Assembly: GCA_016748015.1 (NCBI GenBank)
Contig: JAAOMT010000570.1
Location: 66,043 to 130,042, forward strand
Reading direction: 5' to 3'
Source: Geosiphon pyriformis uo1
Taxonomy: Eukaryota; Fungi; Glomeromycota
Length of the DNA stretch: 64,000 nt
Position 1 is the stretch's first letter. Every line of letters starts with the position of its first letter. Below the pieces are notes generated by a model, which worked only from the letters and a program-made list of their open reading frames with translations, did no database searches and had not been told where the DNA came from. The translations under genes were made by a program, and so were the position numbers. Below, one piece after another: positions 1 to 62,937 of the stretch.

Positions 1-2899
1 GAAGATGCTTTGGAGAAAGACCAGGAGCTCTGGCTAGTTCTGCAGAACATGCAGAAGACATATGATTTGGTGGACTGGAAACATCTTGAGAAAAGTTTAG
101 TCAGGATTAAGATGTGTGACAGATTCATTTGATTTTTTGGTAGTATCCATAGAGATCATACCAACCAAGTTATGACAGACTTTGGTTTGACAGATGGTTA
201 TCATGTACATGATAAACTGAATCAAGGAAAAATTTTCTCCCCTCTTTTGTGGTGTATATTTTATGACCCTCTGTTGTGTGAAGTCAAATGTTAAGAGAGT
301 GTATGTGAGTACAAAATCAATTCTTACTTTATTTCTAAAAGTGGTCGCACTGAATCTTGGGCTGGGTTTTCTTCTTTTCTTGCTGCTGGCGCCTTTGTTA
401 ACAATGCAATTTGGGTTGGCAGTAGTTAGAATACTACCCAACACATTCTTGATGTTGCTAGTGAATTTTTCCAGATTAATAACATTTCGATCAATAATGA
501 CAAAACTGTGGCTATTCTCATCAATAGTAGAGTCAGTCACTTATCTCTTTTTATCAATGGTTCACCCATTTCTGTAATCCATAAAAAAGAATCTCATTGG
601 TATTTTGGTATCTTTCTGTCAACTGAAGGTCTTTCTAAGCCTAGTTTGGCTAAGACACATTTGAATATTTGTTTCTTTACTAATTTGGTCTTAAAAAAGG
701 CTGTTTCAGATAAGCAGTTCTTGTATTTGGTTTTGGCAGTTCTCCATCCTATAGTTGGCTACAAAACACAGTTTAGCTTTATTCCTATTAGTGTTTGCAA
801 CAAATAGGATGCTTTGATTTACAAGGGCTTAAAACTGAAATCTGGTCTTCTACTTAATTTTCCTAGTGATACAATTCACCATCCTTTCTTTTATGGTTTA
901 AAGTTCTTTTCACAATGTCAGTCTGAAAGTAAGATTGCTTCACTTATCAGCTTTACAAACTCTGGTGGGATTCTGGATCATTTGTTCAGCCACAGGTCTC
1001 ATAATTTACAAGTTCTATGTTGGTGTCTCCTCTATCCATTGAGTTCTCCTGTTCACATTTGTGTTAATGCTTCCAATAATTTTTTGTCAGGTATGGTTCG
1101 CATTCTTTGTGACTGCAATTTGTCTTTGGGTGGCTCTTTGGCCAGCTCTTTTCGACTTCATGATGGGGTGCCTATATCTACTGTTTTGGGCAAGTCTCTG
1201 TTTTTCAAGTTTTTGCCTTCTCTCCAGCATTATGGCATAGCCTTTATGGACCAGCTTTGTGATTATCATGGTGATGTCTTTAACTAGTGCACTTTTAAGT
1301 AGTGGAAGAAACTGGGCCCTTGTGGGCCAGTTTCTGATTGTTCAAGATCTCTGTTGTATTTCTTATTGGTTTGCCCCCTTCTTCTCCAGCTTTAAGTAGT
1401 GTTGGCTCTCTGAATATTTGTGAGTTCAGTGATTTTGTGTCTATTTGCAATTGTCTTTTTCATGTTGGCTCTGATAGTCTGTCTGTTTATACGGATAGTT
1501 TCCTTAAGAATTTGGGCATGATTGGGTGTCAGGCTGATGCTGTTGTCTTTTTTGAGGACATTAATTTGGATTTGAGTGTCAGTGTTTGCGGTTTGGTATC
1601 ATCTACTTTGGCAAAGTTACAGGCTATCACCTTGGCCCTGGAGTGTGTACTCAGGTCTTGCTCTGTTTGCTTGTTTTCAGATAGTCAAGCTGCTTTGGAT
1701 GCTTGTAAATCAGAGCTAAATTTGATGCATCCTGACTTTTGCAATTGGTGTTGGGTTGAGCATCAGCATATCAGTAATATTATTTACAGCAAAAACTTAA
1801 GAATCACCTGGCGCAAGGTCAAGAGTCACTCTGGTATTTTGGAGAATAACTGTGCTAACAGTCTCGCTGATACTGCTTCTCTTTCTGGGTGGTTTCTTTC
1901 TCCTCATGTAAGTGAACATTTTTTGGTGGCCAATGGTGATATAGTCTCTGGTAATTCTAGGCACTTTGTTCAGGATGTGTTTTGTGCTGTCTGTCATGTG
2001 CATTGGGAGGTTGGTTCTGGTTCTGGTTTTCTGGTAGGTGGTTTGCTTTCAGATGTCAATTGGTTTAGCTCTTTCTGGATATGGCACCTTGATTTGCATA
2101 TGGTCGCAGATTTTACTAGCAGGCATACTGCTGATACTCGTACCTACTTTATGAAGACTTTGCACTATTAGCTTCTCATAGCTGTTTATAAATGTTTTTA
2201 TGATAAGTGTTATCCCAGTATTCTGTGCTTGTATTGTGAGGAGATAAAGATGTTTGATTATGTGTTTTCTTGTATGATCAATATTTCTGTTCGTCACAAG
2301 ATTTTGGAGTTCTGTGCATCCTTTTGAAAGGATTTTTCTAGTCATTCTCTTCTTCTTTCGAGTGTTTTGCAGCTGTTATTGGCCTGTGCTTCAGATTTTT
2401 TGGTGTCCTCAGCTCTTTTCAAGAGTTTTGTTTTCAATGGGTGGTTCTTGGAGACTGTTTCTGTCTTCTATAATCCCAAAATAGCTAGGATTAAAGTTGC
2501 TGAGTTTGTGTGCTCTCTTTGTCTCACTTTCAGAGATGACATTTGGATGGTTTATGCTAAGCATCACATCTTTATAAAAAAACATGGGCTGATCCCAATA
2601 GATGGTTCTGCTCTTGTTTCAGTTTCTGGCTTAGCTTTAAAGTTTTTGGCTGGTGTGGTTGAATTGCTTGGGATTTCTAAGGCTTTTGGTGTTCATTTTG
2701 GCTTTTGCAAATCTTGTTTGTTTTTTTCAGGTGTTAGTACCTCAGTTTTGGTTAATATAACTGCATAGTATTGTCCTGACTGGTTTGAATGACTGGTTAC
2801 ATGTAGTAAATACATAATTTACACTTAGTTTAGATCATTTCTTTGATGTATACTTCTAAGTGGTATTTGGACTTTGTTTGTTAAGTATTAATAAAAAAA
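1..2899 (+). mobile_element. LINE (non-LTR retrotransposon), 3' part: degenerate ORF2 (RT, RNase H, C-terminal Cys finger), 3' UTR and poly(A)
   Basis: Frame 1 reads EDALEKDQELWLVLQNMQKTYD...LNQGKIFSPLLW...GAFVNN (RT catalytic xxDD decayed to NN). ORF 1338-2171 has RNase H motifs VYTD, FSDSQAA and KVKSHSG. CLYC near 2225. ORF2 ends TAG 2766-2768, with an A-tail at about 2888-2899. Many stops. Confidence 0.9.
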
Positions 2900-3439
2900 A
2901 TATATTTTAATAAACAATAAAAAACAATAATTATTTTTAATTAAAAAATTAAAAATACTTTTTTATTAATTAATAATTTACCAGTTTTTATTACAAAAAA
3001 AAAATCTTATAAATATTTAGATATTTTTTTATTAACAAATAATTTGTTTAAATTTAATTTAGCCAAAACTTATTTAGATATCAAGTTTTTTTTTAATATA
3101 ATTTTATGAAAAACTGTTTTAAATAAACAATTTTTTTATTTAATTATAGTTATATTACAACTTATTATTAATTATTTAAGTAAATATAAACAAAAAAAAA
3201 GTGGCTTTAATAATAAGTTTTTTAAATACTAATAATATTTTTAGTTAATTATTTAATTATAAATTTTTAAATCTACAAATATTAAGCTTGTTATCTAATT
3301 ATTTATTACAATTTTTTGTATTTTTTTTAAACAATTTGTATATTATATTTTGTTTTATTATACTTTAATATTTATTGTTTTAAAAAATTTAGTCTTTTAT
3401 AATATATTTTAATTATAAATTTAAACTTTTTTTTTTTTT

Positions 3440-7899: not shown

Positions 7900-10890
7900 A
7901 CAATATTAATAATATTAAGAAAAAAATAGAAAAATAATAATAAAAATGCTTAATATTGCTAAAACAATTAGTATTTTTTATGATTTATATAAGTTTTATG
8001 TTTTTTTTGGTGTAAATTATTGTGTTTTAATTAAGATAAAAATATAATATTGTTTTTTTAACTTAATAAGTACAGTTTTATTACTATTTAGTATATAAAA
8101 ATAGACCAAGTATTTTTAATTAAATATAACTTATATATTTACTATATATAATTTATTCAAACCAATTAAAACAATATTATATATTTACATAAACTTTTAT
8201 ACTATTAGTAACACCAAAAAAAAAATCTTATGCAATTTAAAATTAACAGCAAATAACTTAGCAATATCAAGTAAATAAATTATTTTAGCTAACAAAAAAC
8301 TGAACAAGTTATAAAAAATATTAAATAAAACTCTTTTATCATCAATTAAACTACTCTTTTCTATATTTATCTTAAATTTTGATCTAAATATTATTATTCA
8401 TAGAAATTAGGAATTATAATAATAGATAAAATAGCCAATCAGAAATAAAAATAGTAAAATAAGAAATTTTAGAATTCTCTTGAGAAATTATTAAATTCTT
8501 AGAAATTTCATATAATATAAATTATATATATATAGTAAGAGTATTAAAAGCAGAAAAAATAATTTTAGGAGAATTCAAAAATACTTTTCTCTTTAAAAAA
8601 TAGTTTTCTATAACTTAAAGTAAAATTATTCTCATATTAATAAAATTATTCATTATTATTGAATCTATGTTATTATTATTTGATTAAAAATATTAATTAC
8701 TTACTTACTATTAACATTCTATGTTGTTAAAATTCAATCCTTAATTACATTAGACTAATAGTTTTTGATTATGGCTATTAACAGAATACTAATTTTTTCT
8801 TAATTTTTTCTTAATTTTTTCTATTTTCTTTATTTTTTTATTTTCTTTTGTTTTATTTTTTTGTTGTTTACTAATTAATTAAAAAAATTAAGTGTTGAGT
8901 ATTTAATATTAAAGATAGTCTGATAAAAGACCTGAAAATAAGAGTAAAAATTTAAGGATAGCTTATCAGAAGAGTATGGCTATCAGAATAAATTGGTTAT
9001 CATGCTAAAAAAAATTCACAGAAGAAACCATTAATTGAATTTTTGTTATTATATAAAAAACTCAATTAAACTTTTTAGAATTTAAAACTTTCAAAATTAC
9101 TAATATCATCAGCTATTGAGCACCAAGTTACAGGTTTGTTATTTGTTTTAATATTTCAAATAATCATCTATAACAATACTCTATCTGAATAAATTCAATT
9201 ATAATATACAATATTGTAAAGGAACTCATTATTAAAATACTAATGCTCTCTTTAGATTTACTATTTAGTAATAATACAACTTTCTTAAATCAAACCAACC
9301 TAATTATTAGTAATTTTTTTTTAAAACAAACACAATAATAGACTTAAACAACTACTCTGTCTTAATAAAATTTTTAAGTAAAGGACAATATCCATCAGAT
9401 TATATTTAACAGCAAAAAAAACATTTGCAAAAACAATCAAGTTTTTATTTAATCTGTCAGAACCAATTATATAAAAGAAATAAAAAAGATTCTAAATGCT
9501 TTCAAAAACTTATTAGATTTAAAAAAAGAGAAATTGTAATTTATAATATGCATATTAACTTATTAACTAAACACTTTGGAAAGACTAAAACAATTTAAAA
9601 AACTCTTGCTTGCTATTAATAACTTATCTTGAAAAAAACATTGTTAAATACATCAAAATCTGTAATATTTGTTAAAAAAAAGGAAAATTTAATTACAAAA
9701 AAGACATTTATTCAATCTTTATTGGTTAACTATTTAACAAAATTAATATAAATATTATTAGATCTTTAATTATAACTTTTAATGGAAATAGATACATTAT
9801 TACAGCTACTGACTATCTTACAAAGTAAGTAAAAACAAAAGTCATCTTAAATTAAACAGCAGTTTCTATTGTCAACTTTATTTATAAAGATATTATTTGT
9901 TATTATAGCTGTCCCAAAAAACTTTTATCTAATAGAAAAAGAGCTTTTTTAAGTACACTAGTTAAAAAACTTTGTAAAAAAATGGAAATACATTATAAAC
10001 TTTTTTCTTTTTATTATTTTTAAACAAATAGTCTAATAGAATGTTTCAATAAAACACTATATAAAACCTTAACCAAAACCAGTAAAGAAACAAACTTATT
10101 AAACAAAGTACTGTCTTTAGTTTTATTTGTTTATAGAACTGTAAATTATAACATAACAAATTATAAATCTTTTTATCAGTTCTATAAACAAATAGCAATA
10201 CTACCAATAAAAACTGACATTAAGACAATATTTTTTAAAAAAATTACAATAGGGAATTACAAAAACATTTTGTAAAGAAAACTTGATACTATTCTTGATT
10301 TATTGATAGAAACATAAATAATTATCTTTGAAAAGATAAAACAGTTTTAAGAAAAGCTTAAGAAAAAAAACTAATAAAACACTTTCTTTAAGTATTGGTA
10401 ATTTATTTTTAAAATACTATTTAGACAAAGACAATGTCTATAGTAATAAATTTTCTAGCTGGTGAAAAAAACTCTTTATAGTCAACAAAATTTTAAATAA
10501 TAGTTCTTATATATTACAAGATTAATATAGAATAATCTTTAATAATTATTCTGTTTATAGTATATAATTCAAGAAATATTACAAATAATCTGATCAGTTA
10601 TTTGTTGTGATAATACTGACTTAATTAATTAGCAAAAATTAGATATAAATAAATGCATCTTTTTCAAAACAGAAATATCTTCAATTAACATAAACAATTA
10701 TTTTCTAAATTAAAACATTTAAAACATTTTCTATATTTTTTATAAGTATTATATCAAAAATTATCCAAATATTACTTTAATCATTAAAAAACAGACTATT
10801 ATAATTGATAACAATAGAACACATACTATTATTAAACTAAAAAAAACTATTACCAGAAGAAAAAAAATTGGTAGCAAAATGGATAAGTAT
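7900..10890 (+). mobile_element. Old, decayed Ty3/gypsy relic (integrase region) hosting younger insertions
   Basis: Decayed integrase motifs: HFGKTKT (about 9572), GNRYIITATDYLTK (about 9784) and TNSLIECFNKTL (about 10024; cf. QTNGLVERFNRTL at 63.6 kb). Boundaries are approximate. Confidence 0.7.
8392..9175 (+). mobile_element. Solo LTR of the dUTPase-gypsy family (decayed)
   Basis: Starts TATTATTCATAG (cf. TGTTACTCATAG), contains AGCCAATCAGAA, and ends ATAATCATCTATAACA (cf. ATAATCACCTGTAACA). Flanked by ATAT/ATAC, a degenerate 4-bp TSD. Confidence 0.8.
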
Positions 10891-11662
10891 TGTTACAGGT
10901 GATTATTTCTGTTGTGGAATTGAATAACAACCCCATAACTTGGTGCTCAAAAGCTACTTTTGTGGATGATGTGCAGAAGGTATAGTATCTGAAGGTTTTG
11001 GTTGATCTGAAGGTTTTGTTGTGGAGTTCTTTGTATAATGAACAGAAATTCAATAAGGTTGATAGTGGTTGTATCCTCAAGTGGTTTTCCTAATTTCTTT
11101 CTCAGCGTGGTGGCTGGATTTAGTCTGGCAGTCATGTCCTTCTAGTAAGCTATCTGATAATATATATAAAGTTCTACCCTTATTTCTGGGTCTTTTATCA
11201 GGCTATCCTTGACGTTAATAACTCAGTACTTAATCTTTTAATCAATTAGTATACAACAACAAAATCAAAGAAAGAAAGAAAATAAAAGAAAATAAAAATA
11301 AAAAAAATAAAGAAAATAAGCCAAGCCAATTTGGTCCGTTAGTATCTCGTCAATAGCCATGATCAAGAGCTATTGTTCCAGCGTGGTTAAGTAGCAATTA
11401 CTATCCACATGAAGTGTTGATAGTGAATAGTGAATTGAGATATGGAATAATTATTTATTTGATGATTGGTTTTTTGGCTAAGAATTCTGTGGTATCGATT
11501 CTGTCTTTTTTGTTTCTAACACTACTGCTATATATACATAATTGGGATTCCTCAATTCCTTGATTCTTCATAACAGGAATCCTGGAATTCCACATTTACT
11601 ATGCTTACTTCTGATTGGCTAATAATTATGCTAATATATTTTTTATATTTCTATGAGTAACA
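10891..11662 (-). repeat. 3' LTR (772 bp)
   Basis: Direct repeat of 17634-18521 with TGTTAC...GTAACA termini. Preceded on the minus strand by the PPT. Confidence 0.95.
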
Positions 11663-11676
11663 TTATTCCCTCCTTT
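11663..11676 (-). promoter_or_regulatory. Polypurine tract
   Basis: Minus strand reads AAAGGAGGGAATAA immediately before the 3' LTR TGTTAC. A near-identical tract is at 62241-62254. Confidence 0.85.
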
Positions 11677-12700
11677 TAATATTGAGCTCCATCGAAATCT
11701 AACTCATGTAATTCTCTCTCTTGAAGTATTTCCTGGATTTTGTTTTCAAGAATTACTTGTGTTATTTGGGTCTGTAATTCTTCAAATTGAGCATTGGTGA
11801 TTTTTCTCAATTGATTACTGGTAACCCTATCCATTGCTCTATTGAGCAATATTTCTGGTTTATCTTGAAATGCTGTGTGTATTCGGTATATGGCTCGGGC
11901 TTGTGTGGATAAGTTGTTCTTTCCCACAAAATGTTCTAATTGTTGTAGTATTCTTTTGTCAAATAATTGTTTTGTTTTATCCGTATATAGATTTTGGATA
12001 TTTATATGTTGTCCCAAGAATTTGAGTTCTGTCTTGCCAAAGAAGCACTTTGTCACATTTAACTTTAGTCCTGCTCTTTTTAGTCTTTCGAACACTTGTT
12101 GAAGATAATGAAGATGATCATCAAATGTCTTTGAGAATACATTGGTGTCATCCAAGTATACAACTACTGATTTCTACAATAAGCCAGTATAAACAATTTC
12201 CATTAGCCATTGGAAAGTTGCTGGGGCATTGGTTAAGCCGAATGGCATCACTTCAAATTTGAAATTTCCTTCTCTAGTAGTAAATGCCATCTTCTTTTTG
12301 TCAGCTGGATTCATGGCTACTTGCCAGTAACCACTGTCCAAATCTAATGTGGAAAACCATTTGTTCCCACCAAAAGCATCAAATAATTCCTGTATTCGTG
12401 AAGTTGGATAACTGTCTCTACAAGTTACACTATTGAGTTTCCTGTAGTCTACACAAAACTGGATTTTTCTATTTTTTTTTTGGATGAGTACCACTGGTAA
12501 TGACCATGGACTCATTGATGGTTGAATCAGCTCATTGTCAAGCATTCTGTTTATTTCTTGACGAATAATCTCATGGCTGGCTGGTGGTACTCTGTATGCT
12601 TTTTGTTTGATTGGCATTATATCTCTAGTCTTGATCTGATGCTGGATGATGTCAGTTCGGCCAAACTTATTTTTGCTGGCAAAAATGTCATTGAAATTGT
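11676..12700 (-). pseudogene. Reverse transcriptase, fused in frame to the C-terminus of the element's 3' accessory ORF
   Basis: CVDYRKLN, LDLDSGYWQV, VMPFGLTNAPATFQ, YLDD and KCFFGKTELKFLG, followed by sequence matching 62254-62596. One internal stop near 12174. Confidence 0.9.
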
Positions 12701-13184
12701 TAAGTAATATCTTGAGCTGCATACATTGGAGTGGATCTAAGTTTCCCATATTCATTTGTTCCAATTGTTCTGGTTGGAGCAAATAACATTTGTCTTGTCC
12801 ATAGATTGTTTGTAATGTGATGTCAACATATCCACAAAGTTGTGGAAAGTCTGGAATGAGATTTGGTGGTTGGTCTTCTATTTTTGTGATTAAATATCCG
12901 ATGGTGGTTCCTTTTGATATGCTGATAATATTGCCAGTATTGTTGTAGATGGAAATTTTTATGCTGCTATAGCTTTTGGCTGGTATGTGGAGATTGATCA
13001 ACCCAATCTCTCCTGATTCACTAAGGGTTGCTTCTGCTTCAAAAATCTGTTTTTGCTCCTTTTCCTTCCTTTCTATTGTTAATATGTACTGGCTATATGG
13101 TGGAATGAAAATAGCTTGACCAGTTGAGATAATTTTTCTTTGGCCAACAACTTCTTCTTCCGCCATATTAACTGGTACATCTGT

Positions 13185-13580
13185 TCTACCTGTTGATCCA
13201 AATCCTTGTATTCCTCTCACTGTTATTCCTAATTTCTTTCTCTTTCCCACTGACACTAACTGAACTACTCTAATCAGAGACAGGAATATTGCCTGTGCTA
13301 TCTTTTTATTGAGCTCTATTATATAGGCCTTTTCTGAGTCATTTTGTAGCATGGTGATAATATTTCCTACATATCCCACATCAATTATTCCTCCTCTTAT
13401 ATTGATCCCTCTTTTTGCTAAGCTACTCCTAGATGCTAATTGAATCATTGTTGTTGCCAGAATCTCTAGTGCTATTTTCAGATTAATGCAGGTGCGTGAA
13501 TACAGTTCTAATTTGATGGCATCTTTTCCTGGATATCTCAGATCAAACCCTGCATCCGTATTATGCACACATTCTGGCAT
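13185..13580 (-). CDS. Retrotransposon-encoded dUTPase domain within pol
   Basis: All five trimeric dUTPase motifs: AGFDL, RSSLA, GIIDVGYVG, IAQ and RGIQGFGSTG. Confidence 0.93.
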
Positions 13581-14829
13581 AATACCTTCCCCATTGTTAC
13601 TATATCATTTCAACTCTTGTTCCTTAGAGAGATTTGGTAGTGCAATGTATTGTTCATAGTTTAAATCGGAGTTTGTATCTGAGTTGGAATCATTGTTGTT
13701 GTCATTGCTATTTTGAATGGAGCTTGAACCATTGTTGTTATCGTCATTGTCAGAGTTTGAATCTCGATTGATCGGTGATTCTGATTCTAATGTGCAGCTG
13801 CTGATTGGTTCTTTCTCTTCTGGGATCGTGTAGATCATGTGTGGTAATGGATTGTAAATGAGATCACACTCATCGCAATAAGTCACAGGGAATTAGGCAG
13901 TGTTGACATAGTCGAGTGTTCAACTGCTCTAACCATTGTTCTTGTTCTTCCCTTGTGGGTGCTAATTCTTGGTAGTGTTCATGGAATTGTTCCAGATCCA
14001 GGAGGTTTATGATGGGTTCTGCATCCCAGTCAAGCTCTAAAGGTTCTGGAGGGTTGTTTTTGATTGTTTTTATCTTTTCTGGTGTCGCTTCTTCGATTTT
14101 TGCAAGTGCCATTTACCAAATTTCATCATCATCATGTGGACAACTGTCCAGTTGCTGCATGGCTCTTCTCCAGGCTGCTTCTATTGGGGTTTTTTTTCTT
14201 ACCCAGTCACTTATTAGAATCATGTATTGACACAACATGTCACACGTTCTTCCATGTCCTGGGATGTTGTTCCATATCCCTTTATCTAACAGGATCTCTC
14301 CACAAGCGAGACAAGGTTGATTATTTCATTTTCCTTGTCTCTTTGGTCGTCCAAAGTGTTTGAGTAAGCATAGACGACAGTAGAATTTTGTTGTGGTGTG
14401 GTATTCCTCATCATCGCCACAGCATGTACCTATTGACGACAATTTCTTGCCACAATCAACACATATAAGCTTAGGTCGACGATAGGTAGATCATTGTGGA
14501 ATAGTGTAGGTATTATTATAAGTGGTAATGGTTTGGGTGGTCTCTTCTTCTTTCCCTTTTCCTTTATTTTCTTTGGCCTCTTCCCATTCCCAGCTTGAAG
14601 TCAGTTCACTCTCGTCATTGTTGGTCCATGTCAAGTTATCAGTCTTCCAGATAAGTTCTTCCTTTTGTTTCCCTTTTCCCTTGTTGTTGTCATCCCAGGA
14701 GAGTATTGGCAGTAATTTGTTGTGTTCTTTGTTAGCCCATGACACTTGGTAGGCTTCCCAGGTAGGCTTCGGTTTCTCCTTGTTGAAGTCAATTAGTGGT
14801 GCCGTGGTGCTGGTAGCCTTGAAGTGGCC

Positions 14830-15200
14830 ACACATTGCTGGTACTTGTGTGTGTCTTTCATTCTAGCTGAGTATTAACTCTTGGGTCGTCCAATTGAGCA
14901 CAGCGTTGGTTTTGGACAGCCAGTCATTACTAACTAGGGCTTGGTATTAGGTGGCATCCATTACTAAGACTTTGATGAGTACTATGATACTGTTAATTTC
15001 TATAGGAAAATCATCTATCTTGCCGATAAGTGTTTTGGTGGCGCCATCAGCAGTGATGATTCTAGTGCTGGCAGCTCAATCAACTCGGTGACCTAATTGA
15101 TCCATTAGCTGTCTTGTGATTATGCTGCCAGCTGATCCACTATCTAGGATGAGTTTGATGGGGTGACTATCAACTCTGGCATCCATGTACATTGCTGTTA
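14830..15200 (-). pseudogene. Retroviral-type aspartic protease domain (with stops)
   Basis: Minus strand reads IKLILDSGSAGSII...TADG...ALVSNDWL. Confidence 0.85.
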
Positions 15201-15333
15201 TGGGTTTCTCTTCGAGGGCAGCTTCACTGAATAACAGTATCAGTGTGTTTTCTTCAAGTTCAAAAGGAAAGATGGCTGCTAGGGATTTGTCGCTAGAGAT
15301 GGTTGCTGGTGAAATTGTGTTGGTAGGTACGTG

Positions 15334-17571
15334 CTAATTGAATTCTGTGTTGTTAGATGTGACATCTTCTGGGGTAACCAGGAGACTTAAATACTGTTGG
15401 GAATTTGGGTTTTGGATGTAACTGGTATCCAAATTCCGGGTGCGTGATCCTGATGGTGGGTTTAGCGAACTGAAGATCAGTTGGTGAACAACCATTGCTG
15501 ATCTCCAATTTTGAGTGACTCTGGATTGAAGGTTGCCTGCTGTCATTTGAGCTGAGTTCTGGGTTGGTGTTTGAATAAGTTGGGGTTGATAGATAATTTG
15601 TGGCTGTGGTTGATATATTACTTGTGGCTGTGGTTGATGAATTGGAGGTTGATATACTGGTGGTTGATAGATTGTTTGCTGCGTCATGGGCAGGTAATTA
15701 TTTTGATATTGGTCTTGACTCTGATTTGGATAATGATTTGGAGTTTGGAATCAGTGATCGGAGTTTCAATATTGATTTCCTGATTGTTGGTTATTTAGAC
15801 GCTAATAACAGTCAATTTGGATATGTCCTTGTTTACTACAATAGTGGCAGATATGCATTTCTTGTTGCCACTGTCGATTGGTTGATGGAGATAGACATGG
15901 TTGATTTTGGGCACGATTAGAGTTTCCTTGATTATTGCATCATTGTGGAGGCTGATAAATGGCGTAATTGTCAGCTAAGTATCCTTCCAATCTCTTATTA
16001 ATTGATTCACTGAACTTCTCCAATTTGGAATCCAATTCAGATGATCCATTCATTACTAGATTAACGGCTTGGACGTGGTTAGCCTCTGACTCAGCAGATT
16101 CAAAATCTCTGGCATGTGTGACTGCATCTTGAAGGGTGCCTGGATGCAATGGACATACATGTTGCAAGATGCTGCTGCGTAGACCATGGATAAACTGATT
16201 GAGTATCTGTGGTGCTGTGAAATAGTTGGCATCAATTGCTTGAATTTGGCATAGGTTTCGATGGAAGTGTCTTAGGTAAGTAGTGACTGCTTCAGTTTCT
16301 CCTTGTTTCATGGTAGTGAATGCATTGACTAGGCAATTGATGCTGTTATTGTTGCTAAAGTATCTTAGGAATTCTGCTTTGAAGGCATTAAAATCTTGTG
16401 GTTTATTAATCAAGCTCTGGTACCATGAATCGGCAGTATCTTTGAGAAAGTAGGGAATGGCTTGCATTGCTCGAGTGTCATTCCATCCATTGGCTACAAT
16501 GGCCTTTTCTATATCATTCAGCCATATTTGAGCATCATCCTTTTTGCCCATAAAGTTGTCAAGTTTTGCAATTGGTGCATAGGCCATTGGATCTAAGTTA
16601 GGTGGTTGTGGTGGCTGTTGAAGCAATTGTTGTTGTTCTGGCTGTTGGAGTGGTAGCTAAAGTGGCTGCTGTATGGGTTCGGCTATGAGATTAATTGGTG
16701 GTTGATTGATGACAATTACTGGAGGTAAGTTTTGCTGATTAATTAATTTGGGTTTTTGATTTTTTTGATTTGACGGCGTTCAAATATTCGGAGTTTCAAT
16801 TTCCAGATTTTCTAACTATTGCTGAGTTTAAAGGTTCGGGGTTTCAACTTCTGGGTTTTCAGTGATTGGGTGCTGGTAAGTGAATTCTTGATCCTCTGAT
16901 TTTTCTTCCTCCTTTTCTGATTCCGCTGCTTTCCACGGATCAGAGATTCCGAAATCTGGTGGAGACGGTGGTGATCAAAGTCCTGATGGGGTTGATAATC
17001 GCGAATTAAATCCCTCAAAATATTTGCCATATAGTCCTAACAATTCTGTTTTCTTTTGTCTACTTTAGAATGGGAATTGTTCAAATGCTGATGTCGCAGT
17101 CGATGGGAACACGTCTGTTGATGATATGTTGATGGCACTTCTAGGTGTATAGTGGTAGGATGGATTGCTTGGAGATTCAACTCTGTTTTTCTTCCAAGCA
17201 GGTGGCTGTATTTTTCTGGGTGTTACTGCTGGTGTTTGTAATTTTCCCTTGCCTTTACTAGCGTATGTAATTGGATATCTTTGTTGAGTGTGGTGTTTAA
17301 TTTTTTTGTTGATCTCAGTGATGATGAATGCAAAATTATGGTTTGTTGGTAGGTTGGTGTTTTGAATTAATTTTTTATAGAAAGTTTCTCTTGTTGATTC
17401 AGTATTTACTGGTGTACCTAATAAAGAGGAAATTTTTTTGTTGACGTAGAAATTAAAGGCTGATTCGGCGGATATATGATTGTGGTTTAATCCCAAGTAT
17501 TGACAATAGTGTTGAAATAAAGATTTTGCGAATCCTAAATGGTTTGCTCCTATAATTTCTGATTCTGCCAT
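15334..17571 (-). pseudogene. gag region (N-terminal extension, capsid-like domain, CCHC zinc knuckle), disrupted
   Basis: ORFs 17065-17571 and 15940-16626 (retrotransposon gag-like, KQGETEAV). CHYCSKQGHIQIDC at about 15808-15849. Confidence 0.85.
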
Positions 17572-17614
17572 TTTTGGTCTGGTGTTGTTGGTGCTGGTTC
17601 TCTGTAGGATTATA

Positions 17615-17631
17615 CCTTACAGAGAACACCA
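17615..17631 (-). promoter_or_regulatory. Primer-binding site
   Basis: TGGTGTTCTCTGTAAGG begins 2 nt after the 5' LTR. TGG is complementary to a tRNA CCA end. The cognate tRNA was not identified. Confidence 0.75.
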
Positions 17632-17633
17632 AA

Positions 17634-18521
17634 TGTTACAGGTGATTATTTCTGTTGTGGAATTGAATAACAACCCTGTAACTTGGTGCTTAAAAGCTAC
17701 TTTCGTGAATGATATGTAGAAGGTATGATATCTGAAGGTTTTGGTTGATCTGAAGGTTTTGTTGTAGAGTTTTTTGTATAATAGACAGAGATTCAATAAG
17801 GTTGATAGTGGTTGTATTCTCAAGTGGTTTTCCCAATTTCTTTCTTAGCATGGTGGCTGGATTTAGTCTAGTAGTCGTGCCCTTCTGGTAAGCTATTTGA
17901 TAATATATATAAAGTTCTACCCTTATTTCTGGGTCTTTTACCAGGCTATCTTTGACATCAATAACTCAGCGCTTAATCTTTTAATCAATTAGTATACAAC
18001 AACAAAATCAAAGAAAGAAAAAAAATAAAAGAAAATAAAAATAAAAAAAATGAAGAAAATAAACCAAGGCAATTTGGTTTATTAGTATCTCGTCAATAGC
18101 CATAATCAAGAGCTATTGTTCCAGCATAGTTAAGTAGCAATTACTATCCACATAAAGTGTTGATAGTGAATAGTAGATTGAGATATAGAATAATTATTTA
18201 TTTGATGATTGGTTTCTTGACTAAGAATTCTGTGGTATCGATTCTATCTTTTCTGTTTCTAACACTACTACTATATATACATAATTAGGATTCCTCAATT
18301 CCTCGATTCTTCACGACAGGAATTCTGGAATTCCTGGAATCCTGCGATTCCTTTGAGAGAAATTCTGGAATTCTGGAATCCTGCAATTCCTCATTGGGAA
18401 TCCTGAAATTCCTGGAATCCTGCAATTCCTGAGAGGAATTCTGGAATTCCACATTTACTACACTTACTTCTGATTGGCTAATAATTATGCTAATATATTT
18501 CTTATATTTCTATGAATAACA
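17634..18521 (-). repeat. 5' LTR (888 bp) with U3 tandem repeats
   Basis: Direct repeat of 10891-11662, with extra GGAATTCCTGGAATCCTGC-type repeats at about 18319-18450. Confidence 0.95.
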
Positions 18522-19039
18522 GTATTTACTTAAAAACATAATAACAAGTATGCTAGCATCTTTTAATATATTTTAAAAAACAATTAAAAAAATTTTACTT
18601 ATAAACAAAAACCTGTTATATAGAAAACAATTAGAGCTTTATAGTCAATTTGGTAAAACCAATAAAAACATGAAACTTATAAAAAAACAACTTTAGAAAT
18701 ACAAATAAAAATTCTAAGTATTATATAGTTAGATGTCTTAAGAGTTTTAACTATTATCAGAAAAGCCAAGACTCTTATACAAAAATTTCATTTCTTGGAC
18801 ACAAAACTTATTTTATTCCAAGTATTATATATTTTATTTACAAAAAACTTTATCAAACTAGTTAGTTTTAAATTAAACAAAACTTTTTAATTTGAATATT
18901 CTATAAATAGTTTGATTTTGTTAAAGCTTAATCTCTTTGGAAAGAATAATATTATGGTTAAAAACTATAATATTTATTAATTATTACATATATTAGTCAT
19001 TAATGTTACATAATTAGCCATTTTATTTTTAGATAATAA

Positions 19040-30921: not shown

Positions 30922-31315
30922 CTTTGGCGAGGTAGAGCTTGTTTGGTCTTCTTTTCTCAAAATTCTGTAAGATATCAAGAAATGTTAATGAAAATTGTAA
31001 ATAGAGAAATTAAACGGATGGGAATACATATCATTTCCTCAGGGAGTTGTTGTGATCTAGCAATTATTTAACCATCTGATTTTTGATTATCGTCATTTTT
31101 GTTACTCTGATAACCGACAAAAGGGCTTTCTTTTCAATGACTTTATTAAATTGTGGCGAGAATCCGACAATTGTTTCTCGCTTTTTCAAAATATAATTCA
31201 TTACTAAACTGTTGAAAAAAGTGTAATTCCACTATCTTCAGCTAATATTACAATTTACAGTGTTAAAAACATTCTTTATTCTGTCATAATTATTTCTAAG
31301 GATTTATCGGGTTTT

Positions 31316-31941
31316 TTATCCTGTAACTTGTTTTATCAATTTTGCTAAATTTATGTCAAACAATTCGCTGCGGATTGGCATCTCAGGTGTATAAAATGGA
31401 TTCTTCATCACGAAATCGCCATAGATATCATAGGTGCGACGCAAAACTAGATCGATATTTGGATGACTTGGGTCAGAAAGTATAAGGAACTTCGTACCTG
31501 CGTTGGAAAAGAAACCATCATATTTTGAGGTTATATGACGTTATCATGCTTACACAAGTGCCAAAGAACTCGACACTGTTTGATAAGATTCAAACCTGTC
31601 AAAGTCTGATAGCAATAGAGCTTGAAGGTATCCGCATCTAGGACTTCTAATCCACTGGAGGTAGCATTACGAATTGGACTTATTTTTGAGGTAATAGCAT
31701 GGACACTTTGTTTAAAAGGATCAAAAGTTATCCATTTCTTTATAAGCTTCGACTAGATGATTTTTGATTTTTAAAAATCTTTGATTCCAGTCTTGAGATC
31801 TTTAAAACAATATATATACCTGTGAAAGGTTGCTGCTAATACCAAATACTCATTATCTGTCAGTTTAGCAAGTCCTTCACTAAAATCTTTTTGATATATT
31901 AGGCCGCCCGCTTTGTTGATAATATAAAGAGAGAATATCAT
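31316..31941 (-). CDS. TRS23: TRAPP complex subunit Trs23/TRAPPC4 (3 exons)
   Basis: [20 protein letters not shown]...[11 protein letters not shown] / [12 protein letters not shown] / [23 protein letters not shown], with GT-AG introns. Confidence 0.93.
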
Positions 31942-32829
31942 TTTGTTGTAATATTAAAAGTTTTACCACACAGAGACAATGTGATTTTTTAAACCACTCT
32001 CCTATCTAAAGCTCTATTTAATACTTCTGAATCCTGAAAATTTTAAAGAGGAAAAGAAAGGTTTAAATGTCTCCCTAATTTCCTAAATTCCAGGTTAAGA
32101 TCACTGATGCATCAAGTGATATGCACATTGCATAGTATTATTATTTAAATACCTCTAGGCTCGAGCTTTTAATATCATATTTTTGTTTTTGCATAAATTT
32201 TCGGCGGTGATCGTTCGTAAGTTTTCTATTTACATGAATTTATCATAGTTTTGGGCTTTGCTTTTCTTTCTTGATGTTGGCATCGTGATAAGCAACAGTG
32301 AGAGTGTCAACTTAGAGTGATGAAATCTTTGGTAACCGGAAATTCTTTTTTGGCTGCTACCCCCGTCACGCTGGCAACTACATTTTCCTTGTCTTTTTTA
32401 CTGAGACAGGTATTCGTGTTGCCGAACCTTTTTATAAGTGGTGTTTTGTCATTTATTACAAAAGCGCCTGGGTGTGTGAGTTTGCCAGGACGAAAAACAG
32501 GCGAATCTGATCAGTTGACAAGTTCTATGTATACCGAATCTTATCAAATATAGAATTCGATTCGATTCACTCAATTCTCATAACTAATTCAAATTTCCTT
32601 TTTTCCTCAATTCAAGAATTTAGGCTCTCAATTTCACAAATAATTGGCCCATTGCCAAATCTTGACAATTTATTTTCTTTCTCCTGGCCAAATTTACTGT
32701 AGCCTTTTATTTTATACATTATTTTTAGAATTCACATTCTTTTATCTATTATCAGCTTAATTCTCAACTTTCATTCCTTAATTCAAAGGAAAGTTTTATT
32801 AGCCACAAAAATCTCCGAGGTTTGATAAA

Positions 32830-35800
32830 ATGACTGCACCTCTTAATCTTCGTTTTTGCCACGAGGATTCCCCAGCTTTCCGGAAAGAACTTGTTGAGTG
32901 TGAAGAGTCTGTTGTTGAGCTTGAAAATACTATAAAAAATCTTGTCAAATCTGCGCGAGCAAGCGTAGAGCTGGCTAGGGGTAGGTATACTTTAATGTCC
33001 TACTAAATGAGTTGAGAATCTTGATGAGTTTATGTCCTAAGTTACTCCTGAAAATATTGTAATTTTTCAAAATCAAACAATAGATTTTGTAATTTACATT
33101 TTCTCTGAATTTTGTTTCCAACTGTTGTCATTGTAGAGTACACGTCCAAGCAATTGCAATTTGCGGAAGAGCTTGGTAACTTTGCGAAACAGCAGCCAGA
33201 TTCTTTGATAAGTGAGTTGATATGAGAAAGTTACCCTGGATCAAACTTATTTCTAACATCAAAAACTGAAATCAAAATGTACATAATTGGATCCAATCTG
33301 CAATTGACCCAATAAGAATCTGTGCTAGCGAAATATTCCTCGTCGCTTCAAGAGGTTGAAAGAAGTCGAATAATGCTAGTAAATATAAATCAATTCATAA
33401 ACAATTTCTTATGTGATTTCCCAATTAATACTATATTTTGACCCGCCAAATAGCATTTGCATATGTGTAATATGTTCATTGAACCAGTTGAAGCCTTCAG
33501 CAAAAATGAAATAGCTCCTTTGAAGGTTAAATAAAATATTTATTGAGGCTTTACTTTCTAAAATATGGGTCTTTAAACTGACTTGCACAACATTAATTAT
33601 CAGGAAGTCAAAAAAAATTTTGAGCGGGCTAGCAATGAAGCCGATAACGCCCTGGCAAAATATATGAGTAAAAGACCGAAAGATCAAATGATTCCTGAGG
33701 TAGCCTAAAGCTCGATTTATGCATATATTCTTATATTAATATTAAGAAATATTTGTTACACTCTGCTTTCTTCTCTTTAAATTAGGCATCCGCAGAAGTG
33801 ACGGATACACGGCGAGAGTTTCATCGGCGCTATCTTGAATACATTTCAAAGCTCAATCAACTCCAAGCAAAGAAAAATTTCGAATTTATGGAATATGTAC
33901 GTAGGATTTATAAGAAATAAGATTGTGATTAGTAGTAGCGAGATCTAACTTGAACCCATTAAAATTTTCACCAAAATATGTGCAACTTCCAGATTTTAGC
34001 GTTAATGTTTACGGAATCGGCGTTCTACCACCAAAATTATGAAACAATGAAAGACTTAGAGCCACACATGAAGGATGTAACAAGTAAATAGGATATTTCT
34101 TTTTGTGTGGTGAATGTCCACAAATGTTAATGTTAGTTTGCTATTTTCTTGATATTTTTAGGGCTTTTACACGAGGTATAGTTGTATTATAAAATAAAAC
34201 ATTTAAACCGATATCTAATAATTTTGGCTTAAATAGGCCAGGACTCAATACGATAATGATTTTTTAGAATCTCAAGCACTCAAGAAGAGTTTGATAGAGG
34301 TGCGAAAATCTGAGATGCTCTATTGAGATTCTGGCGTCGACTAAGTTCTTTTTGTTAATTGCAGACCGCTCACGAAACATACAACCCGATGCGTCCTTCC
34401 AAAGAAATCAAGAACGGAGATTATGTTCCCTCATATAAATCGAGTCCATCATCATCACACACCAACAAAAAATCAGGCTATCTCTTCAAAAAAGGGAATC
34501 AACGCGTCCTACAATCATGGACACGGCGCTATTTTATGATAGATGGTGAATACTTAACATCCTGTGCGCGAAATGGAAAGGTATTTCAACTTTTTATAAT
34601 CTCTTGACTTTTTAGGGTTCGAGATGTGATTAGAAAGGAATCACGGGTTTGATGGTAAGGGGTCTTTTGTGAATTTTCAAAAAGACAGTGTAAGCTGATG
34701 TGAAGGGTGATGGTCAAAAGGTTTCCAAAGACGATGAAGATACGGTGTTGATCAATTTAAGAGTCTGTCATATTAAGCCTGTAAATAATTCTGATCGGCG
34801 ATTTTGTTTCGAGATAATTTCTCCAATGAGGTGAATTTTTCCTGCTTTAGGGTACCTTTCTATTCTATGCAAATTATATTAACTATGGGCATTTCATAAT
34901 AAAATTTTTAAAGAACTTATGTACTACAGGCTGAGAATCAAGAGGAAATGGATGATTGGGTTCAGTGTTTGCAGACTGCAGCTAAAGATGCCCTATATGC
35001 TGGTCAATCGCCAACAAATAGTGACCGAGATGACGGCGAGGTCAATGTATGAACATCTTAAAATTTATTAAGACTCAAACAGGTGTCTGGCATGTAGAAC
35101 GTTTAAAAATAATCTTTTGACTCGTAGGAACTTTCCCAATATGAGGTTGTTAATGGAAACGACCTGCCTGAAGAAAATGGTGCCATTAATGGAACCCCTA
35201 AAAATTTACGACCTTCTATTCAACAAATCATCGATTTGCCTGGTAATCAAATTTGTGTCGACTGCAAATCACCGGGTAAGTTAAAAATTTGATTAAATTG
35301 CTAATTTTCTTTCAAGTACTAAATAAAAATGCCCCATTTCCCTCCTAGATCCGCAATGGGCCAGCACTAATTTTGGTACTTTATTATGCATTGAATGCTC
35401 GGGTATTCATCGTAGCCTTGGAGTCCATGTAAGCAAAGTTAGGTCTTTGGCCTTGGATAAATGGGAACCACATGCGATCGAAGTAATGTTAAGATTAGGG
35501 AATGAAAAAGCTAATCAGATATATGAGGGGCAAATAATGGACAATCAAAAGTTATGTGCCGAAAACTGGTTAGAATTAGACAGGTATTGATAATTAAATT
35601 TCCCATATTTTAATTATATCTTTTCATGAACAAAACTAAGATATTTTTTATAGATCTGAGCGGGAAAAGTTTATCCTAGCAAAATATGTTAAAAAGGAAT
35701 ATATAGCCAACAAGGAGGAAGTTAATTCACCACATATCCATTTGGTGAGTTCAATATCTTTGAGAATAGCAAATTTTAAATAAACTGCTGGCTAACTTCT

Positions 35801-36577
35801 TTCGTATTTTAGGCATTCTGGGAGGCCATGCAAAAAACAGATTTGGGCGAGGCCCTTAAATATTTACCACTTGGTGCAAACGTGGATTATAAGAACGAAG
35901 CTCAAAATTCCACAACCGCTTTGCATCAAGCGATACTGCGGAGTGATGATATAGCCGTGGAATTTTTGCTACAATGGTTCTGCGACATTAATGCAATTGA
36001 TAATGACGGGTGGAGTGGATTGCACCACGCCGCGGCAACGAATAATGCCCGACTTTTGCTCACTCTTATGAAGAGGCATGCCAATATTACCTTAAAAGAT
36101 AAACAGGGAAAGGTAATTTCTGGTGCACAAATTGATCATATTTTGTCTACATCCATTATTTCCCAAGATAATCAAACTTCTAATGTGTAGGCCCCTGTTG
36201 ACATAGCTGTCGAGCGCCAACACGTGCGAGCGGTTACAGCCTTGCGTCTTTATCAATTTGAGAATCAATTAACTCGATCAGAATATTCCAATTTTGGTCT
36301 AGATGAGGCTTTGTCAAGCGTAAGCAAACCCTCCTATCGAAGTGCATCTGCGAGTCTGGATTTGAAAATTTCAACAAATTCTGGGAGAGTTCATAGTGCG
36401 CCTTCAACCCCACCACCGTCTTCACGTCCGAATTCTGATGACTCCTTTTCCGTTCGGACTAGCGTTGATACAGCAATTCTAACGCCCCCAGTTCCTTCAT
36501 CTACGCAACCGCGTTTTACATTCTTAAAACTCCCGACTTTTGGACCGATGCCTTGGGAGGCCAGTGATAGTGACTAA
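32830..36577 (+). CDS. BAR-PH-ArfGAP-ankyrin protein (ACAP/centaurin-beta family), multi-exon
   Basis: EDSPAFR BAR start; PH KSGYLFKK...WTRRYF; ArfGAP CVDC...WASTNFGTLLCIECSGIHRSLGVHVSKVRSL; ankyrin repeats TALHQA and SGLHHAA. Confidence 0.92.
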
Positions 36578-36787
36578 AGTACCGAAATTCAATTTCTTAC
36601 CATGTCCCCCTAGCCGTTTAAGACCAATCGATTGATATTTATTGTTACCAAATATTGTATTTTTCCGAATTATTGTACATTATCACGCATTTTCAATCTC
36701 ACACACTAATAAGTCCATCAGTTATAAATAGTTTGCTTCTTCATATTGGTTCTTTTTTTTTGGGATAAAGAAATAATATCCTTTGAT

Positions 36788-37606
36788 TCAAACAATGGGT
36801 GGTGTAACACTTGGATTTAATTTCTTTTCTGCTAATGATTTTAATGATGATGCTGTGACTTGATCGTTTGCACCCACAGGTAGTAGTGGAGGTTTCCTCG
36901 ACCCTGGCAAGCTCCCATCAACAAACTCTGTTTTTCCAGGCAACTTATCGGCGACTAATTTCATCACCTCTTTTGCCACCTCTTTTCTCATTCCCCCGCC
37001 GCCTATTTCAAACACAATCTTGTTCATAGGGACACGACATGCCCAATATTCAACTGAACCTTTACCTTTGCCCATACGGCACTCATTTCCCTTAGAAGTA
37101 ACTGGGATATCAGGAAAAACACGCATCCACATTTTTGCCCCTCTGATAGGTTTAATTTTTCTCTTTATGGCATGGTGACAAGCTGTCAATTGAGCGCTAG
37201 TAAGCCGTATTCCAAATTTGACGCGTATACCATAATCACCAAAGGCGAGATAATTGCCTTTGGTAGACCCGCCAGTCCGTACAGGCACTCGACCTTTATG
37301 CGCCTTTTTATATTTACGGCGTTTAGGAACAAAGTCAGCTCGAAAACGTCTTTGTTCTGCTCGAATATTACCTGGTAAAAAGTTTGTTCTTGGCAAAAGT
37401 GTGGTATTTGGAAAGAAAACTGAGTTTCTTACTAATGCTGAGTTGAAAAAAGTGAAAAAAGTTCCAAAGTTACAAGGACGTGTGGTTGATTCAATTTTCA
37501 CTGGCCTATGTCCACGATTGATTTGGCTGTCCCGGGGAGACATATGGATATAAAAGGGTTTGAAAGGCACCGAAACATATCTTCTAAAAATCTCCCTAAA
37601 TCCCAT
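36788..37606 (-). CDS. MRPL16: Mitochondrial ribosomal protein uL16m
   Basis: PKRRKYKKAHKGR, RVFPDIPVTSKGNECRMGKGKG, and an N-terminal presequence-like extension. Confidence 0.95.
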   Translation of the reverse strand: MGFREIFRRYVSVPFKPFYIHMSPRDSQINRGHRPVKIESTTRPCNFGTFFTFFNSALVRNSVFFPNTTLLPRTNFLPGNIRAEQRRFRADFVPKRRKYKKAHKGRVPVRTGGSTKGNYLAFGDYGIRVKFGIRLTSAQLTACHHAIKRKIKPIRGAKMWMRVFPDIPVTSKGNECRMGKGKGSVEYWACRVPMNKIVFEIGGGGMRKEVAKEVMKLVADKLPGKTEFVDGSLPGSRKPPLLPVGANDQVTASSLKSLAEKKLNPSVTPPIV

Positions 37607-38256
37607 AGTGGCGAAAGAATCGTGTTTGATGCACCAAGTAAAATTTTTGATTTTTATAAATTAGAACACATAAAAAAAAATCTGAAGCCAACTTAGTTTT
37701 ACAAAAAATCAGTTTCAAAGATATTAAATAGTATAAATGTAAATAATAATCTTTACAACTTTTAAGTTAATAATATGACTTTTAATCAAACCAATTTTTT
37801 ATATAATTTCTCAAAGTTTCAGCAAAAAAAAAGTATTGGCATATTTTTAAACTAGTTGTAATTTAAAGCATAAAAATTGTGGCTTAAGTTATGTTTATAA
37901 TTAATCATTTCAGTTTCATCTCGAAAATTAATTTTTTTAATATTAATTCTTTTAAAACACATTAAAAATAAAAGCTATATATTTTATGTAATTTAAGTAA
38001 TTTTTTATACATGTTGGTAATTTTGATTTAATAATCCTAATATAAATTAAACAGTTTTTGATTGAAATTATTTTATAATTCAGTTTCAATTTAATAAAAC
38101 ACATTTTAATTGATTGATTATTATTAACATACAATTCACATCTTGACAACTGATTGTTTAGTGTATTCTTGATAAATTTTGTAAATGCACCTTTTTAATC
38201 TAAAATTTTTGCTTATCATTTACTAAGAGATCGAACTAAATTATTTCTGTATCTAC

Positions 38257-41200: not shown

Positions 41201-41782
41201 CCAACAAGCAGCTCTGGGAAAGTTTACGATCGCGATATTTCGAGACCAGGTTATCGAATTGTACTTTTTAATTGTTTCAAAAACGCGTGAATTTAGCAAT
41301 GAAACCTAGTTGAATAAAATGAAAAAATTTACCGCCAGTTTGAAAAGTAAAATATCTTACATCTTGGACTATCATCAGTTGCCCAACCGACACGACATTG
41401 GTATGATCCTAAAAATCATTAAAAGGTAAACAATTAAATATCTTGTTTGATTTTAATAAGTGATGTAGCATTTCCATCAAAAATCAAGGAACATTCGAGG
41501 AAAGCAAATAAACTATTCATATAAAATTTCAGAGACCCATCATATGGTGAATTATTTCAAAAATAACCAGCCAAGAAATAGCTTAAAATATTTTTTCGCT
41601 TCACCTCCAACTTAATGTGATAATAAAATATTAACTAGTTATTTATCTTTACCATTGTCAATGACAAGGGGGACTTGGGAACCCCCAAAACTGAATTCAT
41701 AGTCCGTTGAAACAGTGTTTGGACTCCAATATCTTCGGTCGCCAATTAGGTGTATTTTTGGAGTGGATATTATTCCTGCCAT
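38257..41782 (-). CDS. ARP5: Actin-related protein 5 (INO80 complex), multi-exon
   Basis: PLVIDNG; MSELLFECYRIPSVCYGIDALFSF; charged insert with DRRSHASQLRMKSIATLA; QLHVNIERIRVPEALFQP; DPILDAWRGA. Confidence 0.93.
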
Positions 41783-42244
41783 AGGTATTGTTTGAGGTTA
41801 GCAAGTAAAAGTCTTGGTAAAAGCCAAAGTTTGGTTCCAATGAGCGGCAGGTAAACAACCTAAATAGGTGTGACGTTCTTTGTCCCTGCAGTTTTAAACT
41901 GGAAACAATGTCGTTGATAGCGAAACTTTCTTTCAGTGCGGTATACATATCAAATATCAAGTTACAAGAAATATGATAGCATTAGTCACAAAGATTTCTA
42001 TATTGATTTTTTTAACGAAATTGTGCCAATAGGACATTAGATAAAATTTTTAAATGGGAAAGGATATTCCCAATAATGGATCTATTTCAGTTTTTTCAGC
42101 AAGAAATAAAAGCTTAATTTCAATATTGGTCACGTGGTTGAAATTGTCCCACAATTCATTCGATTAATTGCGGGTATAATATAATTTATTAAATTTCCAA
42201 TAATTTTAGATAACGCTAAAATAAAATAAACGATTCAAACAAAA

Positions 42245-42413
42245 GCACTTTTTCAACAGATAAATTGCTCTATGTTGGGTGAATTATCAAGAACGAAAAA
42301 AGTCGTCATGAATTGGAGAGTAAGTTGGCATGGATCTCTGGGTGCGACTGCAGTTTAGAATAATCTTCGTTATTGTTCGTCTGGGGCGGGTCGCAAGGAT
42401 TCATAGCACAGAT
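42245..42413 (+). ncRNA. Candidate box H/ACA snoRNA
   Basis: Hairpin, then AGAGTA (ANANNA, 42317-42322), then a hairpin (TGCGAC/GTCGCA, ATGGATCT/GGATTCAT), then ACA (42408-42410). Pocket spacing in hairpin 1 is non-canonical. Confidence 0.3.
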
Positions 42414-45050: not shown

Positions 45051-45304
45051 AGTGTTTTTTTTAAAAATATAAAAATTATTTATAACACAATTATATAATC
45101 GTAAATATAAGAAAATCTATTTATAAGAAATTTTTTTATTAAATTACATAAAAATCTAGGCCGTTAACTTATGATGTCATAGTGCGCTATTGTGGAAATT
45201 GACTTTCGACGATCACGCAGATCTCATAATAGAAACTTGGTGAACTACGATTCATTTCCCAATGGGTCCCTCTTCTGCACCAAATTCAAATAATATAAAG
45301 GAAA

Positions 45305-46659: not shown

Positions 46660-47035
46660 ATCGATAATAACTGGGGCTCTTTTTTTAGAAATTATGGATT
46701 TAATATATCATTAATCAAATTATTCCCTGGAATATTTTAATGTATTTATAATATTATGATGTAACCTCATTAATAGTCATTTATATACTAGAAGATATAC
46801 TCTAAATAAGAGTCCCACAGAAAATTTGCCCACTTAGGTTGATCAAAAACTTATTGATTGTAATTAGGTAGCACAACTTTTCATTATCTAAGATCTAATT
46901 CCCTGAGACGCGTAAATTTAATGATAGAAATCAATCCAACATTGGGAATATAAATTTTATGAATGGATTCAAATAAACCAAGATTCTTAAACGTGGATTT
47001 TCAAGTTCCAACCTCGAGATTGAATAACGACAAGA

Positions 47036-49308: not shown

Positions 49309-49416
49309 CCTTATCAATATTGTAAGGAAAGGGTTTTAGGATCCTAGTTCTAACGAGTTTGTTGGATGACCCTCAATATCAATATTATATTCAGAATTTC
49401 ATATTCGATATGATCA

Positions 49417-51533: not shown

Positions 51534-51752
51534 TTTTATGGAAGCAAAACTAGAAAGAATTTGGTTTGATTTATAAAACCACATGTGACGCCATTTATTT
51601 TCGCGGTGTGACGTAGTTATCAACAATTGACGCGTTGTTCCATTCTAAATGTGCGCCATTCGGTTTATGCTCCCTCACCAGCATTTTTCACAGTCAACTA
51701 AAGGCAAGTTTCCTTTCTTTTTGCCGTACGGACGCTTCATTCCCTCCAGTTC

Positions 51753-62913: not shown

Positions 62914-62937
62914 GTCTTTATATATTCTTTTGATGGA

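Follow-up and report, generated by a model that had tools for sequence, protein, structure and literature searches.

Analysis of a 64,000-nucleotide stretch of the Geosiphon pyriformis uo1 genome (the window; contig JAAOMT010000570.1, positions 66,043 to 130,042 of the forward strand) revealed that the transposons of this early-branching symbiotic fungus undergo a real, strong and family-wide erosion of cytosine to thymine (C>T). The finding was made on a gypsy-type long terminal repeat (LTR) retrotransposon located on the minus strand at 10891..18521. With a C>T excess of roughly 100-fold that is confined to repeats and has a definite context other than CpA, genome defence by mutation is extended to Glomeromycotina. 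We consider it rather probable, by analogy with other fungi, that the erosion is linked to cytosine methyltransferases and proceeds steadily, and is not classical repeat-induced point mutation (RIP). The element, its flanks and the family copy used as an outgroup are composed as follows:

10887..10890, no strand: left target-site duplication, GTAT (sequence)
10891..11662, minus strand: 3' LTR, 772 bp, TG...CA (LTR alignment)
11676..12173, minus strand: 3' part of the reverse transcriptase (Pfam RVT_1 at residues 3-57; reading frames), followed by sequence that matches neither RNase H nor integrase
12174..13604, minus strand: dUTPase and 5' part of the reverse transcriptase (PF00692, E 6.6e-19; PF00078, E 2.7e-15)
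15940..16656, minus strand: gag/Ty3 capsid fragment (PF03732, PF19259)
17065..17616, minus strand: N-terminal ORF1 fragment, without a Pfam match
17634..18521, minus strand: 5' LTR, 888 bp, with a longer internal tandem segment (LTR alignment)
18522..18525, no strand: right target-site duplication, GTAT (sequence)
61446..64000, minus strand: third family copy, LTR and integrase, the outgroup (sequence similarity, Pfam)

Over 772 aligned columns, the two LTRs of the insertion, which started out identical when it integrated, differed by 57 transitions and one transversion. The initial annotation, made from the sequence alone, had counted about 24 all-transition differences in the first 270 bp by hand; there are exactly 24, every one a transition. 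At the 57 transition sites, the third copy held the C/G base in 39 cases, a weak base in 16, a gap in one and another state in one, which, together with the family-wide data, supports C>T as the direction of the changes, a point on which the bare C/T or G/A of the hand count is silent. CpG was changed at 16 of 26 available sites (ACG 8/11, GCG 3/5, TCG 3/8, CCG 2/2), and 41 of the 57 changes lay at non-CpG sites. Non-CpG cytosines were changed more often after C or T (30/139) than after A or G (11/102; Fisher p = 0.037); the prevalence of TC and CC contexts noted by hand held over the whole LTR, but was not significant in the first 270 bp alone (14/57 versus 5/46, p = 0.12). The accompanying claim that CpA is not a target failed when taken literally: sorted by 3' base, no other non-CpG class of the LTR pair was changed as often as CpA (21/95), which is mutated like CpC and CpT but not preferred. 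With Y denoting a pyrimidine, R a purine and H any base except G, the +2 position pointed in the same direction as the family regression described below (YCHY 17/65, YCHR 13/73, RCHY 4/37, RCHR 7/63). The per-copy rates were 0.44 for CpG, 0.12 for YCH, 0.057 for RCH and 0.0006 for transversions (upper bound 0.0036). In the LTR pair, the ratio was about 10 (CpG) to 2.2 (YpC) to 1 (RpC), with other changes 50-100 times rarer.

The mutations in other copies of the genome were deduced from protein copies (the best-scoring annotated open reading frames, ORFs), not from DNA, and the ancestor was picked for the best fit to C>T descent. The dUTPase ORF at 12174..13604 was the main source of the spectrum (the best 120 of 1883 protein matches) and the ORF1 fragment at 17065..17616 the second. 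Comparing copies across the family had been proposed in the initial annotation, and the bias it expected was evident. In the 120 copies of the dUTPase ORF, C>T was recorded at 3421 of 21925 opportunities (15.6%), in comparison to 59 of 30945 for T>C and 156 of 111795 for transversions (other changes about 0.15%), and the ORF1 spectrum was similar. Codons consisting of A/T only varied in 95 of 8689 observations. Among 303 measurable sites, the median site frequencies at the unambiguous ones were 0.30 for CpG, 0.18 for TC, 0.17 for CC, 0.10 for AC and 0.07 for GC, i.e., a rate order of CpG > TpC ≈ CpC > ApC > GpC. A 5' pyrimidine doubled the non-CpG rate (YCH versus RCH, p = 3e-8, protein-based sites). 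The medians by 3' base over all sites were 0.12 for CA, 0.15 for CC, 0.12 for CT and 0.30 for CG. A regression on 270 sites, from which seven non-CpG sites above 0.45 were left out as likely subfamily variants, assigned a 2.1-fold effect to a 5' C or T and a 1.6-1.8-fold effect to a pyrimidine at +2; the effect of the +1 base was small (with A as the reference, 1.23x for C and 0.79x for T). A coding-strand excess of G>A (1.37x) was also considered, and it was gone at unambiguous sites (1.11x, p = 0.41).

Ordinary CpG decay combined with AT drift of the whole genome, or a sequencing artefact, is hardly credible as the source of this spectrum. CpG is indeed the most mutated context, but most LTR changes lie outside it and are accompanied by a single transversion, A/T-only codons barely vary, and the YpC bias rejects decay of CpG with uniform drift, the outcome against which the initial annotation had set its proposal. 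As for an artefact, contigs covered at about 80-100x depth in a public sequencing run, which may be the source of the assembly, carry the differences. The shares of DNA variants in this run agreed with the protein-based rates (Spearman 0.76, 17 sites), and of two read alignments, the first recorded C>T at 718 places and G>A at 688 (2436 variant rows) and the second spanned 63 central bases.

The other parts of the window that bear on the extent of the process are listed below:

1..3000, plus strand: likely non-LTR element with RNase H, similar to long interspersed nuclear elements (LINE-like), with the same C>T excess (PF00075; 103 copies analysed)
8386..9190, plus strand: older LTR relic R1, of a related subfamily, in opposite orientation to the element (sequence similarity)
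31000..42400, no strand: host gene block, control, CpG 307 versus 350 expected
42541..44950, no strand: AT-rich tract at the end stage of decay, with 9% GC and with TpC reduced to 0.44-0.5 of the expected frequency
45200..54000, no strand: host gene block, control, CpG 298 versus 348 expected
60096..60895, plus strand: older LTR relic R2, the pair of R1 (sequence similarity)

The element at 1..3000, which we take to be LINE-like from the layout of its motifs, gave C>T at 15.4%, T>C at 0.5% and transversions at 0.28% across 103 copies (156 of 277 codons usable). Within the window, to which the examination of confinement applied, the process was restricted to repeat tracts, and nearby genes kept their CpG: relic tracts held 0-2 CpG versus 42-64 expected (none versus 42.5 in the tract 3001-10880), in comparison to 0.86-0.88 of expectation in the two gene blocks. 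At the edges of the relics, GC and CpG fell within about 100-200 bp. Short tandem repeats inside genes had ordinary ratios of transitions to transversions (53:22 and 13:9). These data bear on the idea that the non-CpG changes involve no non-CpG methyltransferase: unmethylated cytosines in heterochromatin would turn into uracil that is not repaired, and their load would add to the usual decay of methylated CpG. Independent, unclustered changes on both strands would fit such a chemical process, and the loads of CpG and non-CpG changes were uncorrelated across copies (rho -0.03 versus 0.33 in the control), a hint of two processes that is confounded by silent G>A at the same CpG. Uracil repair would nevertheless have to fail in repeats only, as the fourfold sites of host genes retain a GC of 36% (209/578) versus about 2% predicted from the transposon spectrum, and we regard this explanation as quite improbable.

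In the relic 42541-43500, the hand counts of the initial annotation were reproduced (57 ApC+GpT, 17 TpC+GpA, no CpG, and 48 CpA+TpG), with the zero for CpG being uninformative at 1.7 expected. Seven pooled relic pairs gave 127/153 for TCH versus 112/183 for ACH. The classic RIP indices were ambiguous in relics (TpA/ApT 1.02-1.11; substrate index 0.84-1.13). Alignment of the young LTRs to R1 and R2 was confounded, as both relics belong to another subfamily, and R1 was therefore compared with R2 instead. Stops in transposon ORFs had been ascribed to CGA, CAA or TGG; among the 12 stops covered by at least five relatives, 11 aligned mainly to W, Q or R, in agreement with that origin, and one mainly to N. 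The origin of the 42541..44950 tract from a relic is suggested by weak matches to other repeats.

The arrangement of the changes bears on the mechanism. Neurospora-type RIP, which needs RID or DIM-2 and takes place before meiosis, produces episodic strand-biased clusters per round and relies on homology recognition, being stronger on linked duplicates, whereas APOBEC3 hypermutation of retroelements prefers TC and CC. A strand skew per copy was absent (chi 104 versus 99±11 for independent hits), although p values of 0.03 and 0.05 put two of the six skew tests at the border of significance; 32 simulated single-strand rounds gave 160±22, and none of 60 simulations was as low as observed. Same-strand neighbours were not in surplus in six of six tests, no strand runs were found in the six DNA copy lists of the window, and a search for excess patchiness of C>T sites across copies was negative. 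Shared descent between copies was not detected (0 of 7140 pairs with z>4). The linked LTRs were not mutated above internal sites of the same element (0.093 per non-CpG C versus 18/192 and 3/78, together 21/270), a comparison that is weak with regard to homology recognition because hundreds to thousands of copies of the gypsy family make all parts of the element repeated. Given the absence of strand skew, patches, sharing and LTR excess, each copy gained its own C>T changes after insertion, a few at a time and on both strands, which speaks against bursts of the APOBEC type and against RIP in a small number of rounds, and in favour of a steady deamination. The proposal of a repeat-directed cytosine mutator outside Dikarya with a 5'-dependent specificity hence stands as regards the repeat-restricted, one-directional C>T change, the primacy of CpG and the 5'-pyrimidine bias; its APOBEC analogy and burst-like RIP are not supported.

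An AID/APOBEC-like deaminase that acts at TC/CC, either on the cDNA of retroelements or on genomic DNA exposed as a single strand, is very unlikely. The roughly twofold YpC preference does resemble APOBEC3 targets, and the element carries a dUTPase, a known anti-uracil device. However, cDNA editing predicts G>A on the sense strand only, while on the sense strand of the LTR pair 33 changes were C>T and 24 were G>A; strand-coordinated clusters were looked for without success, RpC was still about 40-fold above transversions, and CpG was the top target in all 5' contexts. True RIP, based on homology pairing, the RID/DIM-2 pathway and a cryptic sexual or parasexual stage, with very many weak rounds and a CpG > YpC target, is unlikely as well, but less so. 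It would explain transition-only, repeat-confined changes on both strands, about 100-fold over other changes, as well as the sharp relic edges, and RID is reported for the clade of arbuscular mycorrhizal fungi (PMC8298701). Conversely, CpA is not preferred, the roughly 25 changes per copy could arise without strand skew or runs only in more than 32 single-strand rounds, and the linked LTRs show no excess.

Under methyltransferase-linked erosion, the methylation of transposon copies by cytosine methyltransferases would be dense at CpG and sparser elsewhere, with a preference among non-CpG cytosines for those directly preceded by a pyrimidine. The marked cytosines would deaminate and stay unrepaired, so that C>T changes would build up in both strands, one site at a time. 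The site preferences may be set by DNMT1 or DNMT5, as the maintenance enzyme for CpG, together with a non-CpG enzyme of the DIM-2 type, to which the 5' and +2 bias would be due. As a result, ORFs would acquire many stops, and the GC content of old copies would sink to about 10%. The enzymes, the methylation and the timing in this scheme are inferred from relatives, in distinction to the spectrum, its confinement, the independence of the post-insertion changes and their lack of clustering, all observed here. The second-hand list in PMC8298701 that names RID is said to place DNMT1, DNMT2, DNMT5 and DIM-2 in the same clade. Transposons show high CG methylation in Rhizophagus irregularis (10.1101/2021.03.30.436303), CG and CHH methylation in Phycomyces (PMC11258239) and Dim2-dependent mitotic C>T mutation in Zymoseptoria (PMC8016269). 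According to 10.1101/2025.09.02.673565, Glomeromycotina as a whole have lost Rev1, with Pol zeta being retained in Geosiphon, and this loss might lower transversions.

Several points weigh against this account. The choice of the ancestor favours the C>T class, and the sample of best-scoring ORFs under-samples heavily or one-sidedly mutated copies, so that bursts could be hidden. The YpC bias is only about twofold. In the LINE-like family it was weaker (p = 0.025 at all sites, 0.06 at unambiguous sites), and the +2 effect was not significant in its 103 copies. When LTR copies were compared with the old relics, a TpC excess was apparent for R2 (51/69), and little of it for R1 (42/69 versus 26/49 for ApC). 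The putative enzyme link rests on other species, and in Zymoseptoria the mutations did not fall on those CG sites that were methylated (PMC8016269); mutation need not, therefore, mirror methylation.

Within the element at 10891..18521, RNase H and integrase had no Pfam match, and it is likely internally deleted. Its reverse transcriptase (11676-12010, minus strand) leads straight into the 3' end of the element, and around 12010 many contigs part from this sequence, which fits an internal deletion private to this copy. The dUTPase (PF00692) lies upstream of the reverse transcriptase at 12174-13604 (minus strand) and is carried by most of the 120 listed copies. The non-self protein matches listed were all named Geosiphon pyriformis (119/120, 120/120 for the best 120 of 1883, and 103/104 for the LINE-like element), and of the 10 distant gypsy loci obtained in a metagenome scan, the two closest were checked and shared no similarity at the DNA level. 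The target duplications were GTAT/GTAT at the element and GTAT/ATAT and ATAC/ATAC at the relics near 8386-9190 and 60096-60895; the one visible flank of the third copy (61442-61445) reads TCAT, and all duplications of the LTR family were centred on TA or CA. The identical GTAT on both flanks of the young element suggests that the target was already TA-centred at insertion, and not a CpG, which would have had to decay two times at either flank.

Elsewhere in the window, an open frame of 473 codons at 26990-28411 (plus strand), rich in Thr, Gly and Ser, built of 63-nt repeat units and without a Pfam match, sits in a CpG-retaining island between relics; its predicted product looks like a secreted or surface protein. 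Three 51-nt repeats, spaced by 67-68 nt, adjoin ORFs without a Pfam match at 51988-52173 and 53379-53885, where CpG is retained. A tandem array of 12-nt units occupies 19039-19180 within a CpG-free relic tract, and 20 N at 26405-26424 mark an assembly gap.

In the literature searched, no account of a spectrum of this kind was found for Geosiphon or any other member of Glomeromycotina; the two Geosiphon genome papers, known as citations, could mention it. The context ranking yields a direct prediction for the methylome. Ages based on LTR divergence would be strongly inflated in the G. pyriformis genome, and many annotated 'hypothetical proteins' are decayed transposon copies. It is possible, if doubtful, that Glomeromycotina possess a repeat-directed mutator of their own, a RIP-type defence that predates Dikarya and whose target is CpG > YpCpNpY. 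If so, this target would be one that CpA-based screens do not look for, and the mutator would be a sign either of cryptic sex in a lineage that has long been considered asexual or of RIP without meiosis.

Of the known systems, APOBEC3 editing differs from the Geosiphon process in that the latter affects both strands after insertion, forms no clusters and is dominated by CpG, with a TC/CC preference of only about twofold. Among fungi, RIP-like signatures were restricted to ascomycetes in a kingdom-wide screen, whose species table contains no row for Geosiphon or Ambispora in the 12 of 19 supplements covered (PMC12543289). An index-based claim outside Dikarya concerns Entomophthorales (PMC11105155), and RIP signatures are reported as absent from Gigaspora and Mucoromycotina (10.1101/2021.03.30.436303). 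RIP in Neurospora crassa (RID/DIM-2; PMC12543289, PMC13297926) resembles the process in Geosiphon in its exclusive C:G>T:A change, its restriction to repeats, the AT-rich relics and the nonsense codons derived from W, Q and R; Geosiphon, a member of Glomeromycotina, differs in lacking a CpA preference and strand-biased bursts, and an excess in linked repeats, hard to judge in so highly repeated a family, was not seen. The TpCpG hypermutation of Pucciniomycotina, for which PMC3318451 leaves the choice between methylation and RIP unresolved, likewise affects CpG first and depends on the 5' base. In Geosiphon, however, CpG is mutated in all 5' contexts, non-CpG cytosines carry most of the load, and TpCpG is no outlier (TCG 3/8 versus ACG 8/11 in the LTR pair; n = 4 for TCG in the protein data). 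The Dim2 mitotic mutation of Zymoseptoria tritici is similar in being more than 95% C>T and confined to transposons, and it needs no sexual cycle and is linked to a methyltransferase (PMC8016269). In that species, more than 98% of the changes are at CpA and CpG is spared, whereas in Geosiphon CpG leads and CpA takes its share, the 3' base matters little among A, C and T, and a pyrimidine at the 5' and +2 positions matters instead; the enzyme and the methylation are demonstrated in Zymoseptoria and putative in Geosiphon.
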